Positions 2,201-55,763 of a stretch of DNA of 64,000 nucleotides are shown here, in pieces. Each line of letters starts with the position of its first letter. Positions within the stretch are counted from its first letter, which is position 1. The notes below the pieces were generated by a model. It was not told where the DNA came from, made no database searches, and saw only the letters and a list, made by a program, of their open reading frames with translations. Position numbers and translations under genes: made by a program. Source of the stretch: Lysobacterales bacterium (lineage in GTDB: Bacteria > Pseudomonadota > Gammaproteobacteria > Xanthomonadales > Marinicellaceae); contig JALUIX010000058.1 of assembly GCA_027057345.1 (NCBI GenBank), positions 10,564-74,563 on the forward strand, read 5' to 3'.

Positions 2201-4001
2201 TGGCGTCGCCTTCGTTCTGGTTCGGCTGCTCTTCCTCTTCCGGCAGCACCGCCTGTACATGCACTTCGGCCAGCTGCTGGGCCGGAATCGGTGAGGGCGC
2301 TTCTGTCAGCGGACAGCTGGCGCTGGCGGTTTTGGGAAAAGCAATCACTTCGCGAATGGAATCTACGCCGCACATGAGGGTGGCCAGGCGATCCAGACCA
2401 AAGGCAATGCCGCCGTGTGGCGGTGCACCGTATTCGAGGGCTTCCAGCAAAAAGCCGAATTTCTGCTCGGCTTCCTCAGGCGTAATGCCCAGCAAGTCAA
2501 ACACCGCGCGCTGCATGGCCGGGTTGTGGATACGAATGGAACCGCCGCCCAGTTCCACGCCGTTCATGACCATGTCATAGCCCTTGGACAAGGCCGCTTG
2601 CGGATTGGCACGCAGGCTTTCCACATCCCCGGTCGGTGCGGTGAATGGGTGGTGCAAGGCGTCCCAGCGTTTTTCGTCCTGGTTGTATTCAAACATGGGG
2701 AAATCCACAACCCACAACGGTTTCCACTGGCCTTCCAGCAAGTCCAGGTCTTCGCCCAGCTTGAGGCGCAGGGCGCCCATGTACTGGCTCACCGAATCGG
2801 CATCGCCGGCGCCAAAGAAAATCAGATCGCCATTCTCGGCTCCAGTGGCTTCAAGAATGGCCGTCAGGGCGGCTTCATCCAGAAACTTGACAATGGGGGA
2901 CTGCAAGCCGTCGCGACCCTGAGCCTTGTCATTGACCTTGATCCAGGCCAGGCCGCGGGCACCGTAACGGGCCACAAACGGGGCGTAATCGTCTATCTGT
3001 TTGCGGGTAAAACGCTCGCCACCTTTTGGCACCTTCAAAGCCACTACACGGCCATTGGGATCGGCCGCAGGCATGGCAAACACCTTGAATTCACTGTCCT
3101 TGACCGCATCGGCAATATCCACCAGTTCCAGCGGGTTGCGCAGGTCGGGTTTGTCTGAGCCGTAGCGGCGCATGGCTTCAGCCCAGGTCATGCGCGGGAA
3201 TGGGTTTGGCAAGTCCACATCCAGCACGGTTTTGAAAGTGTGACGGATGAGGTTTTCGGCCATTTCCAGCACGTCTTCCTGATCCACAAAGGCCATCTCG
3301 ATGTCCAGCTGGGTAAATTCCGGCTGGCGGTCGGCGCGCAGGTCTTCGTCGCGAAAACAGCGGGCAATCTGGTAATAGCGGTCCATGCCGGACATCATCA
3401 GCAGCTGCTTGAACAGTTGCGGGGATTGCGGCAAGGCATAGAACTTGCCTGGCTGGACGCGTGCCGGCACCAGAAAATCGCGCGCGCCTTCGGGCGTGGC
3501 CTTGGTGAGTACCGGCGTTTCAATGTCGAGAAAATCGCGCTCATCCAGGTGGTTGCGCAGTGCCCGTGTCAAGCGGGAACGCAGGCGAATGTTGTGCTGC
3601 ATCTGCGGGCGGCGTAAATCCAGGTAACGGTGTTTAAGGCGAATGGCTTCACCGGCTTCTTCGTCCAGCATAAACGGCAAGGGTTTGGACGGGTTGAGCA
3701 CTTCATAGTCGTCCACCACCACTTCGATGGCGCCGGTGCCTAACCGCTCGTTAACCTGCCCCTCGGGCCGGGGCCGGACGGTGCCACGCACACGCAGGCA
3801 GTATTCGTACCGGGCCTTGTCGGCAATGGCAAAGGCTGTTTCATTATCCGGCTCGACCACCACCTGCACAATGCCGCTGTGGTCGCGCAGGTCGATAAAA
3901 ATCACCCCGCCATGATCCCGGCGCTTGTCCACCCAGCCGCATAATTCAACCTGTTGGCCGAGTCTGGTTTCGTCTACCTGTCCGCATAAATCGCTGCGCA
4001 T
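2193..4001 (-). CDS. aspS: aspartate--tRNA ligase
   Basis: OB-fold N-terminus [19 protein letters not shown]; class II motifs [18 protein letters not shown] and GGGSIRIH. Start set at MRSDLCGQV (ATG 4001) rather than the longer ORF. Confidence 0.95.
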
Positions 4002-4128
4002 GAGTCTGGTTCCTGATATTGCGTTGGAAAACCGCACATGATACCGCCAATGGCCCCGTTTTTACAGGCCACAAGGCGGTTTTACGTGGTTTTTCAGCCT
4101 CTGCTGGCGCTGTGGGAGTGGCCTTTGA

Positions 4129-4287: not shown

Positions 4288-4769
4288 TTAAGAATAGTGA
4301 CGAAATTGCAGGGTTTGTGCGCAGCATCCAGTTGTTCAGCCAGAATCCGGGTCCAGGCCGTGCGGCAGGCGCCAGTGGAGCCCGGCAAGCAGAAAATCAG
4401 GGTGTTGTTGGCCAGCCCGCCCAAGGCCCGCGACTGAATGGTGGAAGTGCCAATTTCTTCGTAGGACAACTGACGGAACAACTCACCAAAACCTTCCACC
4501 TGCTTGTCCAGCAAGGGTTGAACGGCTTCGGGGGTCGAGTCCCGCCCGGAAAAACCAGTGCCGCCGGTGAGCAGCACCACGTCGGTGTTTTCATCGGCAA
4601 TGGCATCACTGACGAGTTTGCGAATCTGGTAAATGTCATCCTTGACAATATCATGGGCCAACACGCGATGGCCGGCGGCCCCGGCGGCTTCGCGCAAATA
4701 GGCGCCGGAGGTGTCGGTTTCCGGTGTGCGGGTGTCGCTGACTGTGAGCACGCGAATATTCAGGCTCAT
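4278..4769 (-). CDS. moaB: molybdenum cofactor biosynthesis protein B (MogA/MoaB family)
   Basis: LTVSDTR and LLTGGTGFSGRD motifs, 163 aa. The last codons (KEA) plus TGA lie inside MITE copy B. Confidence 0.8.
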   Translation of the reverse strand: MSLNIRVLTVSDTRTPETDTSGAYLREAAGAAGHRVLAHDIVKDDIYQIRKLVSDAIADENTDVVLLTGGTGFSGRDSTPEAVQPLLDKQVEGFGELFRQLSYEEIGTSTIQSRALGGLANNTLIFCLPGSTGACRTAWTRILAEQLDAAHKPCNFVTILKEA

Positions 4770-48741: not shown

Positions 48742-51222
<2,481 letters not shown>

Positions 51223-51256: not shown

Positions 51257-52345
51257 TCAGCCATCTTTGATCAGGTCGTGTTTCACGTGAAACACCCGAC
51301 TTTCCTTGTGCACCGGAAATTGATTGGCAATCACCTCCGGATGCAGACTGCTGGCAAAAACCTGCGTATCTATGGTTTCGAATTGGTTAAATACGTGCTG
51401 CAGGTGTTCCTGATCCAGTTCCGCGTCCAGGTCATCCAGACACACCACCGGCCAGCGCCCGGTGGATTCATAAATCATCCGAACCTGGGTCAGGTACATT
51501 TCGATGGCCAGCATTTTTTTTTGTCCGCGCGATAAAATTTTCCGTGCCTCTCCTGGCCCTGCCATGATTCGCACGTCCATGCGATGCGGCCCCACTGTGA
51601 TGGCACCATAGCGGACATGCTGCTCATCGTGATGTAAAAGCTCACCCAGTAATTCTTTTTCTTTTTTCCACCCACTGCGGTAGTGCAATTGAATATCTGC
51701 TGCCTGCAACAAGCCGCTATTCCAACGTGAACCACACTGTTCAAGCAGTCGCTCAAAAACGTCGCGTCGCTGGCCATCCAAAGCGGTACCGGTCTCGGCC
51801 AGTTGCTCATACCAAAAATGACGGTCAGTTAAACTGCCGTCGCCTTGTTTCAACATGGCGTTGGCCTGTTGCAGCAGGTAGCGGTATTTTTTCCAGATAA
51901 GCAAGTGATCGGGTTTCACGTGAAACGTCAGCCAATCCAGAAAACGCCGTTTAGTTTCCGGCGGGGAATCCACGAAGTGATAAGAGCCACTGTGGATGGC
52001 CACCACAGGCAACAGCAGCGAAATGGGCGTAATGCCTTTGAGGGTCTTTTCCTGGAGGCGTGCCTTGACAACACCCTGCTTGTCTTTAGACACGCCAAGT
52101 CGGTATTGGTTGCCCGCCTGGAGGCTTTCAGCAAAGACCGACAAGGATGTCTGTCCGTGGGTAATCATGTTCTGTATGCCACCGGGGCGAAAGGACTTGC
52201 CGCTGGACAAAAAATAGATGGCTTCAAGGAAAGAGGTTTTTCCAATGCCATTGGGCCCGGTCAGGACATTGAGCCCATCAACAGGTTGCCAATCACACTC
52301 GTGAAGACTGCGAAAATGACGTGTGCGCAAGCGCTTCAGGTGCAT
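51257..52345 (-). CDS. recF: DNA replication/repair protein RecF
   Basis: Walker A GPNGIGKTSFLEAI; LSRGQKKML signature; position between dnaN and gyrB. Confidence 0.95.
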   Translation of the reverse strand: MHLKRLRTRHFRSLHECDWQPVDGLNVLTGPNGIGKTSFLEAIYFLSSGKSFRPGGIQNMITHGQTSLSVFAESLQAGNQYRLGVSKDKQGVVKARLQEKTLKGITPISLLLPVVAIHSGSYHFVDSPPETKRRFLDWLTFHVKPDHLLIWKKYRYLLQQANAMLKQGDGSLTDRHFWYEQLAETGTALDGQRRDVFERLLEQCGSRWNSGLLQAADIQLHYRSGWKKEKELLGELLHHDEQHVRYGAITVGPHRMDVRIMAGPGEARKILSRGQKKMLAIEMYLTQVRMIYESTGRWPVVCLDDLDAELDQEHLQHVFNQFETIDTQVFASSLHPEVIANQFPVHKESRVFHVKHDLIKDG

Positions 52346-52425: not shown

Positions 52426-52585
52426 GGAGCTTCTGATTGAATCTGATGCGAGCAGATTGTCGTGAAAAATCGTTCAGTTCAAGGCGCAAACCGCACGCAA
52501 TAACCAGCTATTGTGAAGGTTTGCAACGCAGAAATGGACGATTTTACGCCGCAAGATGCCGTGTCACGATTCAATCAGAGGCTCC
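52426..52585 (-). mobile_element. MITE copy F (subfamily 1, 160 bp)
   Basis: Perfect duplication CTAA (52422-52425 and 52586-52589). The right-hand CTA is the dnaN stop codon (TAG on the minus strand). Lies between dnaN and recF. Confidence 0.9.
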
Positions 52586-53692
52586 CTAAAGGCGCAAAGG
52601 CATAATGATCTGGCGACAGCGATTGTTATCCGGGTCTCTCACCACGCAGCTGCTGGTGGCGTCCTTGAAACTGAACAACACATTTTCACTGTCCAGGCTG
52701 TTAATCGCATCCAGCAGGTAATTGACGTTAAACCCGGTACCCAGCTCAGTGATATCGGTTTCCACCGCCAGTTCTTCTTCCGATTCTTCCTGTTCAGGGT
52801 TGTATCCGATCAAAACAAGTTTATTAGGAGAAATTTTAAACTTAACGCCCTTGTATTGTTCATTGGACAGGATCGAAGCACGCTGGAACGCAGACCGGGC
52901 CTGCTCCTTGTTAACCTGCATGGTGAGATCGATGTCCAGGGGAATCACCAGGTTGTAGTCGGGAAAACGACCATCGATGAGCTTGGAGGTGAAGGCGGTT
53001 TGGCCCAGGGTGGCGCTGATATGGTTGCGGCCAATGTTGATCTGGATAAATTCCGGCGCGTCCTTGAGTAGTTTCTGTAACTCCAGCACCCCTTTGCGGG
53101 GAATAATGATCTGGTGTTTGACGCTTTCGCTATGCGAAAAGGGCGCCTCAGCCAGGGCCAGTCGATGACCGTCGGTGGCCACTGTGCGAATGGTGTTTTC
53201 ATCCAGCTCCAGCAGCAGCCCGTTGAGAAAATACCGCACGTCCTGGCTGGCCATGGCAAAAGCGGTTTGCTGTAACAGGCGGATCAGGTCATCAGTCTTT
53301 ACCTGGAAGCTGTCCACGGCCTGAACCCCTTCAATCAAGGGGTATTCATCAGCGGGCAACGAAGCGAGGCTGAATCGGCTTCTGTTGGCGCTGACGGTAA
53401 CCTTGGGGCTGTTTTCAGCCTGGGTGATGGAAATCAGCGAACCATCGGGCAACGCCTTGCAAATATCAAACATTTTACGGGCCGGTATGGTGGTTTCACC
53501 AGGCTGGTGAACTTCCACCGGCAAGCCACTGCGCATTTCCACTTCCAGGTCGCTACCGGTCACGGTCAGGTGGTCGTTTTCGGCTTTAAAGCAAAAGTTT
53601 CCCAGAATGGGCAGTGTCTGTTTCTTTTCGATCACCCCGATGGTTTGTCCCAGGGCGTGGAGTAAGGTTTCTCGCTGTGCTGTTATTTTCAT
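52586..53692 (-). CDS. dnaN: DNA polymerase III beta sliding clamp
   Basis: 368 aa; MKITAQRETLLHAL ... C-terminal IIMPLRL; position after dnaA. Confidence 0.97.
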   Translation of the reverse strand: MKITAQRETLLHALGQTIGVIEKKQTLPILGNFCFKAENDHLTVTGSDLEVEMRSGLPVEVHQPGETTIPARKMFDICKALPDGSLISITQAENSPKVTVSANRSRFSLASLPADEYPLIEGVQAVDSFQVKTDDLIRLLQQTAFAMASQDVRYFLNGLLLELDENTIRTVATDGHRLALAEAPFSHSESVKHQIIIPRKGVLELQKLLKDAPEFIQINIGRNHISATLGQTAFTSKLIDGRFPDYNLVIPLDIDLTMQVNKEQARSAFQRASILSNEQYKGVKFKISPNKLVLIGYNPEQEESEEELAVETDITELGTGFNVNYLLDAINSLDSENVLFSFKDATSSCVVRDPDNNRCRQIIMPLRL

Positions 53693-53733
53693 TATCTTTA
53701 TAAAAACCAGTAGTTATAGGCTTGGAACAAGTC

Positions 53734-53856
53734 CGTGGATAAGCGCTTAAGTGATTGATTTTAAGGCAAAAGAAGCGCCGAGTGCAAAAGGATTAAGCTG
53801 TGGATAAGCTGTGTTTAAGTTTAGCGGCTGTTTTTATCCCCGACTTATCCACAGCT
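53734..53856. promoter_or_regulatory. DnaA-box cluster in the dnaA-dnaN spacer
   Basis: Two perfect TTATCCACA boxes in inverted orientation (53799-53807 as TGTGGATAA; 53845-53853), each inside a perfect 13-bp inverted repeat AGCTGTGGATAAG / CTTATCCACAGCT. Also an 8/9 box (53734-53742) and a 7/9 box (53834-53842). An AT-rich stretch abuts the dnaN ATG. Confidence 0.7.
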
Positions 53857-53890
53857 TGCCCACAGGTATTGAGCCATGTTGTTCATCTAG

Positions 53891-54052
53891 GGAAGCTCTG
53901 GTCGAATCGTGACACGGCGCCTTGCGGCGTAAAAGCGCCCATTTCTGCGTTGCAAACCTTCACAATAGCTTGTGTTATTGCGTGCGGCTTGCGCCTTGAA
54001 CTGAACGATTTTTCACGACAATCTGCTCGCGCCAAATTCAATCAGAGCTTCC
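53891..54052 (+). mobile_element. MITE copy G (subfamily 1, 162 bp)
   Basis: Perfect duplication CTAG (53887-53890 and 54053-54056). Lies 18 bp after the dnaA stop, between dnaA and the DnaA-box cluster. Confidence 0.9.
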
Positions 54053-54070
54053 CTAGTGACAATACAAGGC

Positions 54071-55420
54071 TTATTCCGTGAGCAGATTGATGAGTTTTTG
54101 CCTGTCTTCGGCGAAATCGGGTTCCTCGTTAAACAACTGTTGCATTTTGCGGCAGGCATGCAGCACCGTGGTGTGATCGCGGCCGCCGAAGGCCTCGCCA
54201 ATTTCCGGCAGGCTTTTGTCCGTGAGTTCCTTGGCCAGGTACATGGCCAACTGGCGGGGCCGTGCAATGGAGCGGGTGCGTTTTTTGGAAAGCAGGTCAG
54301 AAAGACGAATGCCGTAGTAATTGGCCGTGGCTTTCTGAATGTTTTCAATGGTGACCTGACGGTGGTGAATGGTGAATAGTTCACGCAGTGTCTGCTTGGT
54401 AAATTCAATGTCGATGGTGGCGCCGGTAAAGCGTGCATTGGCCCAAAGGGTGTTGAGCGCGCCTTCCAGCTCGCGAATATTGGAGCGCAATTTTTTGGCA
54501 ATGTAAAAAGCCACCTGGTCGGAAATGTTGATGCCCTGCTGGCGTGCCTTCTGTAACAGGATGGCCACTCGGGTTTCGAAATCCGGCGGGTCAATGGCCA
54601 CGCTCAGGCCCCAGCCCAGCCGGGATTTAAGGCGGTTCTTCAAGCCATTGACCTCTTTCGGGTAGCGGTCACAGGTGATGATGACCCGTTGCTTGAGTTC
54701 AAGCAGGGAGTTAAAGGTGTGAAAGAACTCTTCCTGGGTGCGCTCCTTGCCGGCAAAAAACTGGATGTCGTCAATCAACAGGGCATCCACGGAACGAAAC
54801 TGCTCCTTCAACTGGTCCATTTCCTGATTTTTAATGGCACGAATGGTGGCGTTTACAAACTGTTCGGAATGCGTGTAGTAAACAATGGCGTTGGGCTGCA
54901 GTTCCAGAATGCGGTTGCCAATGGCGTGCAGCAGGTGGGTTTTGCCCAGCCCGGTGGATCCATACAGCAGCAAGGGATTGTATTCCACCTGGGGTTCTTC
55001 GGCGATCTGCAGGGCTGAATGCTTGGCAATGGTGTTGGACTGACCTTCAACAAAGTTATCAAAGGTAAAGCGTGGGTCGATGTTGGATTGCAAGCGCGCC
55101 TGCGGGCGTTCCGGCAAGGCACTGGGCCGTTTGCGTTTTGGCAGGCTGCCATCGGCACTCAAATGCAGCGTGACCTCACAGGGTTGCTGGCGGATTTCAT
55201 TGCAGGCGGCGCGAATCAGGGGCAGGTAATTATCACGCACCCGCTGTGCCACGATTTCGTTGGGCGCAAAAAGATCCAGCCCGTTGTCTGTTTCCGTGAA
55301 ACGCAGGGGTTTGAGAAAAAGGGCGATATCACTGCTGTCGATTTCCACCTGAAGGCGATTGACGCATTTATCCCAAAGGGTTGGTTGTTCCTTGTTGCTG
55401 GTGTCTGTTTTGGCATTCAT
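54071..55420 (-). CDS. dnaA: chromosomal replication initiator protein DnaA
   Basis: AAA+ Walker A GSTGLGKTHLLHAIGN, LIDDIQFFAGKERTQEEFFHTFN, and C-terminal DNA-binding region RPRQLAMYLAKELT ... DHTTVLHA. Start at MNAKTD (ATG 55420). Confidence 0.98.
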   Translation of the reverse strand: MNAKTDTSNKEQPTLWDKCVNRLQVEIDSSDIALFLKPLRFTETDNGLDLFAPNEIVAQRVRDNYLPLIRAACNEIRQQPCEVTLHLSADGSLPKRKRPSALPERPQARLQSNIDPRFTFDNFVEGQSNTIAKHSALQIAEEPQVEYNPLLLYGSTGLGKTHLLHAIGNRILELQPNAIVYYTHSEQFVNATIRAIKNQEMDQLKEQFRSVDALLIDDIQFFAGKERTQEEFFHTFNSLLELKQRVIITCDRYPKEVNGLKNRLKSRLGWGLSVAIDPPDFETRVAILLQKARQQGINISDQVAFYIAKKLRSNIRELEGALNTLWANARFTGATIDIEFTKQTLRELFTIHHRQVTIENIQKATANYYGIRLSDLLSKKRTRSIARPRQLAMYLAKELTDKSLPEIGEAFGGRDHTTVLHACRKMQQLFNEEPDFAEDRQKLINLLTE

Positions 55421-55763
55421 AGTGTTTTTTCTTGCGGTGTTTGAAGGTCCGTTCCAACACGTGTGACCCATGGAGGCAGATTTTTCGAAGTGGCGGCTAA
55501 ACCAGCTTGTGTCATTCAGGCGAATTTCAGGCGGCAAGGTTCAGGACAGAGAAGAGAAAACCGGCCGGCCAACGCGGCCTCAAAAACCGCTTTGCCCTTG
55601 AAAATACACGCAAAAACGGGTATGCTTCACCACCTTTTGAGGAAGTGCTGTGCCTGCCATCTGGCCCGTTCTGATGTTTCGGGCAAGAAAACCAGCGGCC
55701 CGGCGGTTCCTTTTTTTGTTGTAAGCAGCCCTTACCACAGCGAATTCAGACGGAAAGAATACC

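Follow-up and report, generated by a model that had tools for sequence, protein, structure and literature searches.

A probable single-part chromosomal replication origin in the dnaA-dnaN spacer of a Xanthomonadales bacterium, with a MITE at its border

The MITE-free part of the dnaA-dnaN spacer, approximately 53683-53864 (182 bp), is very probably the chromosomal replication origin of the bacterium studied here, i.e., a single-part oriC recognized from its sequence. A preliminary description of the locus had proposed that the spacer could be oriC or part of it, and we favor that proposal: the layout is complete and conserved, a GC-skew minimum lies nearby, and the cluster of DnaA boxes on another contig (C26) is DARS-like. 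This kind of oriC is already known, and the present example is an ordinary, well-preserved one.

The window, i.e., the whole stretch of 64,000 nucleotides that was analyzed, corresponds to positions 10564-74563 of contig C58 in the genome under study, G000, a 96% complete draft of 158 contigs and 2.45 Mb with 56.5% G+C. The gene order dnaN, dnaA, rpmH given in the preliminary description was borne out, as were coordinates and strands:

48742-51183, minus strand, gyrB
51257-52345, minus strand, recF
52586-53692, minus strand, dnaN (its ATG reads CAT on the plus strand, at 53690-53692)
54071-55420, minus strand, dnaA
55421-55763, spacer between rpmH and dnaA
55764-55904, plus strand, rpmH, followed by rnpA, yidC and mnmE, all on the plus strand

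The spacer between dnaA and dnaN measures 378 bp, MITE included. We observed that dnaN has no recognizable Shine-Dalgarno sequence and that its ATG adjoins an AT-rich tract, both in G000 and in 14 aligned relatives from its family. An Rfam scan of the locus gave nothing above threshold; besides chance miRNA and lncRNA matches, it returned a sub-threshold match to AsdA, an antisense RNA of dnaA mRNA, at 54884-54964 on the plus strand inside dnaA (31.9 bits, against a cut-off of 52), which probably just mirrors conservation of the dnaA sequence.

A DnaA search of 30 relatives yielded loci from 28 genomes, in 12 families of the same order. These relatives share ancestry, so that counts among them describe conservation and are not statistics. 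An exact-match search of public assemblies with the DnaA protein gave no record. The locus of G030 matched Stenotrophomonas humi at 88% identity over 4.3 kb, that of G029 matched a Dyella locus at 85% over about 0.95 kb, and that of G024 matched a Wenzhouxiangellaceae locus at 79%. Because two of the relatives' loci match Stenotrophomonas and Dyella at 85-88% DNA identity, we assign the order as Xanthomonadales (Lysobacterales). The congeners of G000 are G002 (DnaA 97% identical) and G001 (DnaA 85% identical).

DnaA boxes, IHF site and unwinding element

From dnaN towards dnaA, the elements recognized in the spacer are:

53683-53712, minus strand, AT-rich candidate unwinding element (DUE), overlapping the dnaN start codon and the first dnaN codons
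53708-53719, minus strand, DnaA-trio-like block, CTA TAA CTA CTG on the dnaA-sense strand, i.e., 3'-GAT ATT GAT GAC-5' on the plus strand
53734-53742, minus strand, R1-like box TTATCCACG (8/9), pointing at the DUE
53748-53760, minus strand, IHF consensus site AATCAATCACTTA, an exact match to the consensus WATCAANNNNTTR
53799-53818, minus strand, DUE-facing array, i.e., TTAAACACA (7/9, 53810-53818), 2 bp, and TTATCCACA (9/9, 53799-53807)
53834-53864, plus strand, opposed array, i.e., TTATCCCCG (7/9), TTATCCACA (9/9, 53845-53853) and TTGCCCACA (7/9), in 11-bp steps
53890-54053, MITE of 164 bp (53888-54055 with a TA on each side)

The perfect TTATCCACA boxes at 53799-53807 (minus strand) and 53845-53853 (plus strand) form an inverted pair 46 bp apart, and they are the sole two in the 64-kb window. 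Dinucleotide shuffles of the window gave a mean of 0.17 perfect boxes, and two were reached in 1 of 100 shuffles, which upholds the earlier contention that two perfect boxes so close together are not random. Also exact as first described is the 13-bp inverted repeat around them (AGCTGTGGATAAG at 53796-53808 and CTTATCCACAGCT at 53844-53856), and the weaker boxes reported with them were recovered as one 8/9 match and three 7/9 matches, the latter starting at 53810 (minus strand), 53834 and 53856 (both plus strand). About 130 bp thus hold six boxes with at most two mismatches, as against a window-wide density of about 0.5 per 216 bp, i.e., a cluster far above chance. The rpmH-dnaA spacer (55421-55763) contained no DnaA box with two or fewer mismatches, again in agreement with the preliminary description, and because this upstream spacer is without boxes, an origin in two parts is unlikely.

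Within each array the boxes follow one another in steps of 11 bp (a 9-mer plus a 2-bp spacer), a step that recurs in the relatives. Read in the direction from dnaA to dnaN, the spacer presents the boxes TGTGGGCAA, TGTGGATAA and CGGGGATAA in one orientation at 11-bp steps; then, after a gap of 15 bp, TTAAACACA and TTATCCACA in the opposite orientation, again at an 11-bp step; then, after 38 bp, the IHF consensus AATCAATCACTTA, followed after 5 bp by the box TTATCCACG; and, 14 nt past TTATCCACG, CTA TAA CTA CTG, GTTTTTATAAAGATA and the dnaN ATG.

Only two exact matches to the IHF consensus occur in the window, one of them in the dnaA-dnaN spacer, between the DUE-proximal box and the arrays. Among the related spacers, 13 of 28 contain an exact match, as against 0.9 expected from shuffles, and in most family members it lies 46-47 bp past the perfect box. 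The gene for IHF alpha (ihfA) is present in the genome, above the curated cut-off, and we regard the match as a putative IHF site of the E. coli-like kind.

The candidate DUE at 53683-53712 has the lowest duplex stability of any 30-bp stretch in the window (dG of -30.2, vs a mean of -43.6), and among 50-bp stretches the lowest stability is that of 53683-53732; the AT-rich stretch that the preliminary description had placed next to the dnaN ATG is therefore confirmed. Throughout the 2.45-Mb genome, 53683-53712 falls in the top 0.01% of all 30-bp windows for instability. When every box in the genome with no more than one mismatch was ranked by the instability of the DNA 10-50 nt downstream, the R1-like box TTATCCACG came first of 562, i.e., an easily melted AT-rich element adjoins a box. 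An AT-rich tract lies directly before the dnaN ATG in G000 and in all 14 family relatives that were aligned. The tract is short and is also the translation start region of dnaN, and its instability could be due in part to that role.

The trio-like block begins 14 nt past the R1-like box, with the polarity of the R1/13-mer arrangement of E. coli and of the BUS definition. A BUS consists of a box with no more than two mismatches, a spacer not exceeding 16 bp, and three or more NAN trios in succession, on the strand that gives the box as TGTGGATAA (PMC8287927; Pelliciari et al., 2021). In G000, TTATCCACG departs from the perfect box at one position, and the first CTA follows after 14 nt; six of the seven triplets after TTATCCACG fit NAN, the second (TAA/ATT) does not, and an unbroken run of three or more begins 20 nt from the box. 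A strict test for in-phase runs of CTA or TTA picked out 16 relatives on the expected strand and 5 on the other strand, with 8 expected; its score was 0 in the genus of G000 and 3-4 in seven relatives. Because of this score of 0 in the genus, and of the second triplet being TAA, we call the block trio-like only. Several relatives carry textbook box-GC-(CTA)n-AT unwinding modules; the module of G025 reads TTATCCACT-gcgc-TTA TTA CTA CTA CTG-TTTTAT, and that of G027 reads ggcc-TTA CTA CTA CTA-gttttatt. An alignment of the family (A1) has invariant A91, A94, A97, C98 and T99 in the block, and this 3-nt periodicity of invariant positions argues that the block is constrained.

The layout as a whole is conserved across the order. 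Synteny of rpmH and dnaA-dnaN was kept in all 28 relatives, and every one of the 28 had at least one box with no more than one mismatch in the dnaA-dnaN spacer. An inverted pair of boxes was found in 25 of the 28; in 21 of these 25 genomes the inner distance of the pair was 24, 35, 46 or 57 bp, i.e., congruent with 2 modulo 11, where chance would give about 2. The upstream spacer was without a box of one or no mismatches in 21 of the 25 relatives in which it could be delimited. Within the family, the perfect box lies 115-119 nt from the dnaN ATG in 14 of 17 members, with an intervening sequence that has mostly diverged. Alignment A1 resolves four conserved islands, i.e., the box, the IHF core (invariant CAA....TT), the weak-box region and a block C-TA-nnA-nTA-CT, after which comes AT-rich DNA. 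G000 has the Xanthomonadales-type layout: a box cluster in a long dnaA-dnaN spacer, and a box-poor rpmH-dnaA spacer.

GC skew and the box cluster on contig C26

For the 158-contig draft of G000, the skew is a contig-level measure, and the contig extends 12 kb to the right of the site. The cumulative GC skew of C58 falls over 62 kb to a minimum at about 51.8 kb (window coordinates) and rises over the remaining 14 kb. G003, which belongs to the same family and has a 4.32-Mb contig, showed a V-shaped cumulative minimum at 2,639,807 in the 400 kb around dnaA. This minimum lies inside the 3' end of dnaA (2,639,592-2,640,890, minus strand), about 220 bp from the dnaA-dnaN spacer; in 10-kb bins, the skew was negative in 18 of 20 bins on the left and positive in every bin on the right. 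The GC-skew analysis that the preliminary description had proposed as a check therefore placed a minimum near dnaA-dnaN, i.e., the site lies at the skew switch, at contig level in G000 and also in G003. The skew rules out an origin far from dnaA, as in E. coli, with a resolution that spans both of the spacers flanking dnaA.

A richer region of DnaA boxes and DUE elsewhere on the chromosome had been named in the preliminary description as grounds for looking away from this spacer. The whole genome contains 29 perfect boxes and only two clusters of boxes, i.e., the dnaA-dnaN spacer and contig C26 (locus L081), of which the latter is DARS-like and not origin-like. C26 carries three copies of a module of about 210 bp, at 1-217, 3821-4045 and 4374-4571, which occurs nowhere else in the genome and contains TTATGCACA-ga-TTATCCACA-ggttt-TGTGGATAA, with a gap of 2 bp and then of 5 bp; a Ser/Thr kinase gene follows copy 1, and priA follows copy 3. 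DARS1 of E. coli MG1655, in the bioD-uvrB spacer, reads TTATCCACT-attcc-TGTGGATAA-cca-TGTGTATTA (a gap of 5 bp, then of 3 bp), and PMC6868365 gives a head-to-head pair of boxes 5 bp apart as the hallmark of the DARS core. In layout, though in layout only, the C26 modules conform: boxes I and II are head-to-head 5 bp apart, and box III is in tandem with box II.

The pair TTATCCACA-N5-TGTGGATAA, with one mismatch allowed, was present in 29 of 31 genomes of the order, G000 included, and a reversed control gave 0. It lay directly upstream of priA in 5 of the 12 relatives' loci that were fetched. In G003, the pair is at 3.185 Mb and dnaA at 2.640 Mb, i.e., 545 kb apart. These observations make C26 a candidate DnaA-reactivating site, or a candidate site for control of priA by DnaA, in Xanthomonadales. 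In the literature searched, we found no paper on a link between DARS and priA.

We considered it highly improbable that the origin is in two parts or lies on another or an unassembled contig (e.g., the triple repeat of C26), with the spacer cluster as its accessory half. The C26 modules hold 6 of the 29 perfect boxes and, at 96% completeness, some DNA is missing from the draft, but the modules have the layout of a DARS core and none has an unstable flank among the top-ranked boxes of the 562-box ranking; moreover, the pair stands upstream of priA in five relatives and, in G003, far from dnaA. C26 was rejected as the origin on its DARS-core layout, its want of adjacent unstable DNA and its position upstream of priA.

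It is also quite unlikely, if slightly less so, that the cluster does no more than regulate transcription of dnaN (and recF) through DnaA, the true origin being elsewhere. DnaA is a known transcription regulator, the boxes stand immediately before dnaN, and the AT-rich tract runs into the start region of dnaN. However, the assembled genome offers no other candidate origin, its other cluster being DARS-like, and the skew minimum coincides with the spacer. Strict spacing and phasing, an IHF site and a trio block are features of an origin rather than of an operator. Furthermore, a consensus scan of the dnaN strand of the spacer found no sigma-70-like promoter, which counts against this explanation; it found no terminator there either. 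Control of a dnaN promoter by DnaA, or titration of DnaA, may be an additional role of what we take to be the origin.

Comparison with known origins

According to PMC8453159, which cites da Silva (2002), Yen (2002) and Qian (2005), the DnaA boxes of Xanthomonas oriC lie between dnaA and dnaN. The G000 locus is from the same order and has the same dnaA-dnaN position within the block rpmH-dnaA-dnaN-recF-gyrB, but it belongs to another family and genus (DnaA about 54% identical), its core is shorter, and a MITE stands at its border. Autonomous replication of a dnaA-dnaN intergenic fragment was reportedly obtained by Yen and colleagues, in 2002, for Xanthomonas campestris and X. citri. Within Xanthomonadales, the exact IHF consensus is kept mainly in the family of G000.

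We compared the locus with 80 named gammaproteobacterial loci. An inverted pair of boxes 34-36 or 46 bp apart, in a spacer of 210-370 bp, was seen in Stenotrophomonas, Rhodanobacter, Dyella, Lysobacter, Pseudoxanthomonas and Wenzhouxiangella, and a long spacer with an inverted pair was also present in some unclassified MAGs. In Enterobacterales, Vibrio and Shewanella, almost no gap separated dnaA from dnaN. In Pseudomonas, Halomonas and Marinomonas, the boxes are upstream of dnaA and the dnaA-dnaN gap is box-free and 22-68 bp long (194 bp in one Salinicola locus), whereas G000 has the reverse arrangement; common to G000 and the Pseudomonas-type oriC are the conserved gene block and the use of DnaA boxes. 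The preliminary description had treated the position of the cluster as unexpected by comparison with Pseudomonas. That view did not hold, i.e., both the named loci and the Xanthomonas reports make the position normal for Xanthomonadales.

E. coli oriC lies between mnmG (gidA) and mioC, is under GATC/SeqA control and has three 13-mers; when its R1 box is read as TTATCCACA, the triplets CTA ATA AGA of the right 13-mer follow 13 nt further on. G000 matches E. coli in how the elements are ordered and oriented: unstable AT-rich DNA, about 13-14 nt, a box facing that DNA, an IHF site, an array oriented like the box, and an opposed array. Box steps of 11 bp are likewise common to G000 and E. coli oriC, and the latter has two box arrays in opposite orientations (PMC4285127). 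Unlike E. coli oriC, the G000 locus is beside dnaA, has only six recognizable boxes, and has a DUE that overlaps a start codon. By eye, no GATC was seen in the core sequence.

The origin of Bacillus subtilis is in two parts. The G000 locus resembles the BUS of B. subtilis incC and other origins (PMC8287927, PMC6669920): its one-mismatch box is followed after 14 nt by CTA-type triplets on the correct strand and then by AT-rich DNA, directly upstream of dnaN. It differs in that the trio run in the genus of G000 is interrupted (CTA TAA CTA CTG), an IHF site is present, and no box cluster lies upstream of dnaA.

In E. coli, the function of datA depends on an IHF site within the locus, and datA is not known to have an adjacent unwinding element or trio block. 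The gene for Hda, a DnaA paralogue, was found in G000 at C139:11616-12290, above the curated cut-off; by analogy it implies a predicted regulatory inactivation of DnaA as in E. coli, and its presence makes an E. coli-like DnaA-ATP/ADP cycle plausible in G000. Given such a cycle, and given that E. coli datA is likewise a cluster of boxes (PMC6868365), the spacer cluster might be a datA-like locus for DnaA titration or ATP hydrolysis beside dnaA. We regard this as very unlikely, since the least stable DNA of the window adjoins a correctly oriented box, the Xanthomonas origin is reported from this same position, and the layout is homologous throughout the order.

The MITE beside the core, and a model for initiation

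The preliminary description had placed a MITE in the spacer between the box cluster and dnaA; the element is real and so located, although its length is 164 bp and not 162. It has the terminal inverted repeats GGGAAGCTCTG and CAGAGCTTCCC and forms one long hairpin (-80.7 kcal/mol, z = -7.7). At least 265 near-full-length copies of it are present in the genome, making up about 1.8% of the 2.45 Mb. The copy in the spacer lies 14 nt past the dnaA stop codon, with 25 bp between it and the outermost box, and because of the latter distance the origin core is untouched. A second copy, at 52432-52588, fills most of the dnaN-recF spacer and adjoins the dnaN stop codon, so that the conserved dnaA-dnaN-recF block holds two copies.

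Neither congener had the MITE in its dnaA-dnaN spacer, which measured 212 bp in G002 and 197 bp in G001. The insertion site reads ttgtcac-TA-[MITE]-TA-gatgaac in G000 and ttatcagcagatgaat in G002, and this junction is consistent with duplication of a TA target; the origin cores of the two genomes differ by a few substitutions only. The TA flanks suggest a Tc1/IS630-type origin of the MITE. With about 200 candidates, the MITE family is also abundant in G002, but none turned up in the congener G001 or in two other members of the bacterial family, G003 and G008. Because of this distribution, and because the G002 spacer is empty, it would appear that the MITE has expanded recently within the genus and that the spacer copy is specific to the G000 lineage.

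From the arrangement of elements we infer binding of DnaA and IHF, unwinding and initiation as follows. DnaA would nucleate on the two perfect boxes and then fill the weak boxes that flank them, resulting in two oppositely oriented DnaA oligomers on an 11-bp lattice. At AATCAATCACTTA, which lies between TTATCCACG and the DUE-facing array, IHF would introduce a bend. From the R1-like box, a DnaA oligomer would extend over the trio-like block 14 nt away and open the AT-rich tract overlapping the dnaN start codon, where the helicase would be loaded. The MITE would have inserted recently, in this lineage alone, into a neutral strip that separates the dnaA stop codon from the outermost box, leaving the core intact.

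A more elaborate version, which we put forward as a speculation with little likelihood of being correct, is an unusually minimal one-part oriC of about 175-180 bp throughout the family, in which the DUE doubles as the Shine-Dalgarno-less start of dnaN and so physically couples opening to clamp expression, the MITE hairpin in G000 acting as a terminator or insulator against read-through from dnaA.

Our current understanding of initiation is not changed by these findings. They narrow the likely origin to 182 bp in a 2.4-Mb Xanthomonadales lineage that is uncultured or poorly known, which may be of use for contig orientation, for growth-rate estimates from peak-to-trough ratios and for vector design. 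They also indicate that a highly proliferative MITE can insert 25 bp from a probable origin and spare its core. For the order as a whole, they suggest that Xanthomonadales origins combine an E. coli-like order of elements (DUE, R1-like box and opposed, phased arrays) and an 11-bp lattice with a position between dnaA and dnaN.
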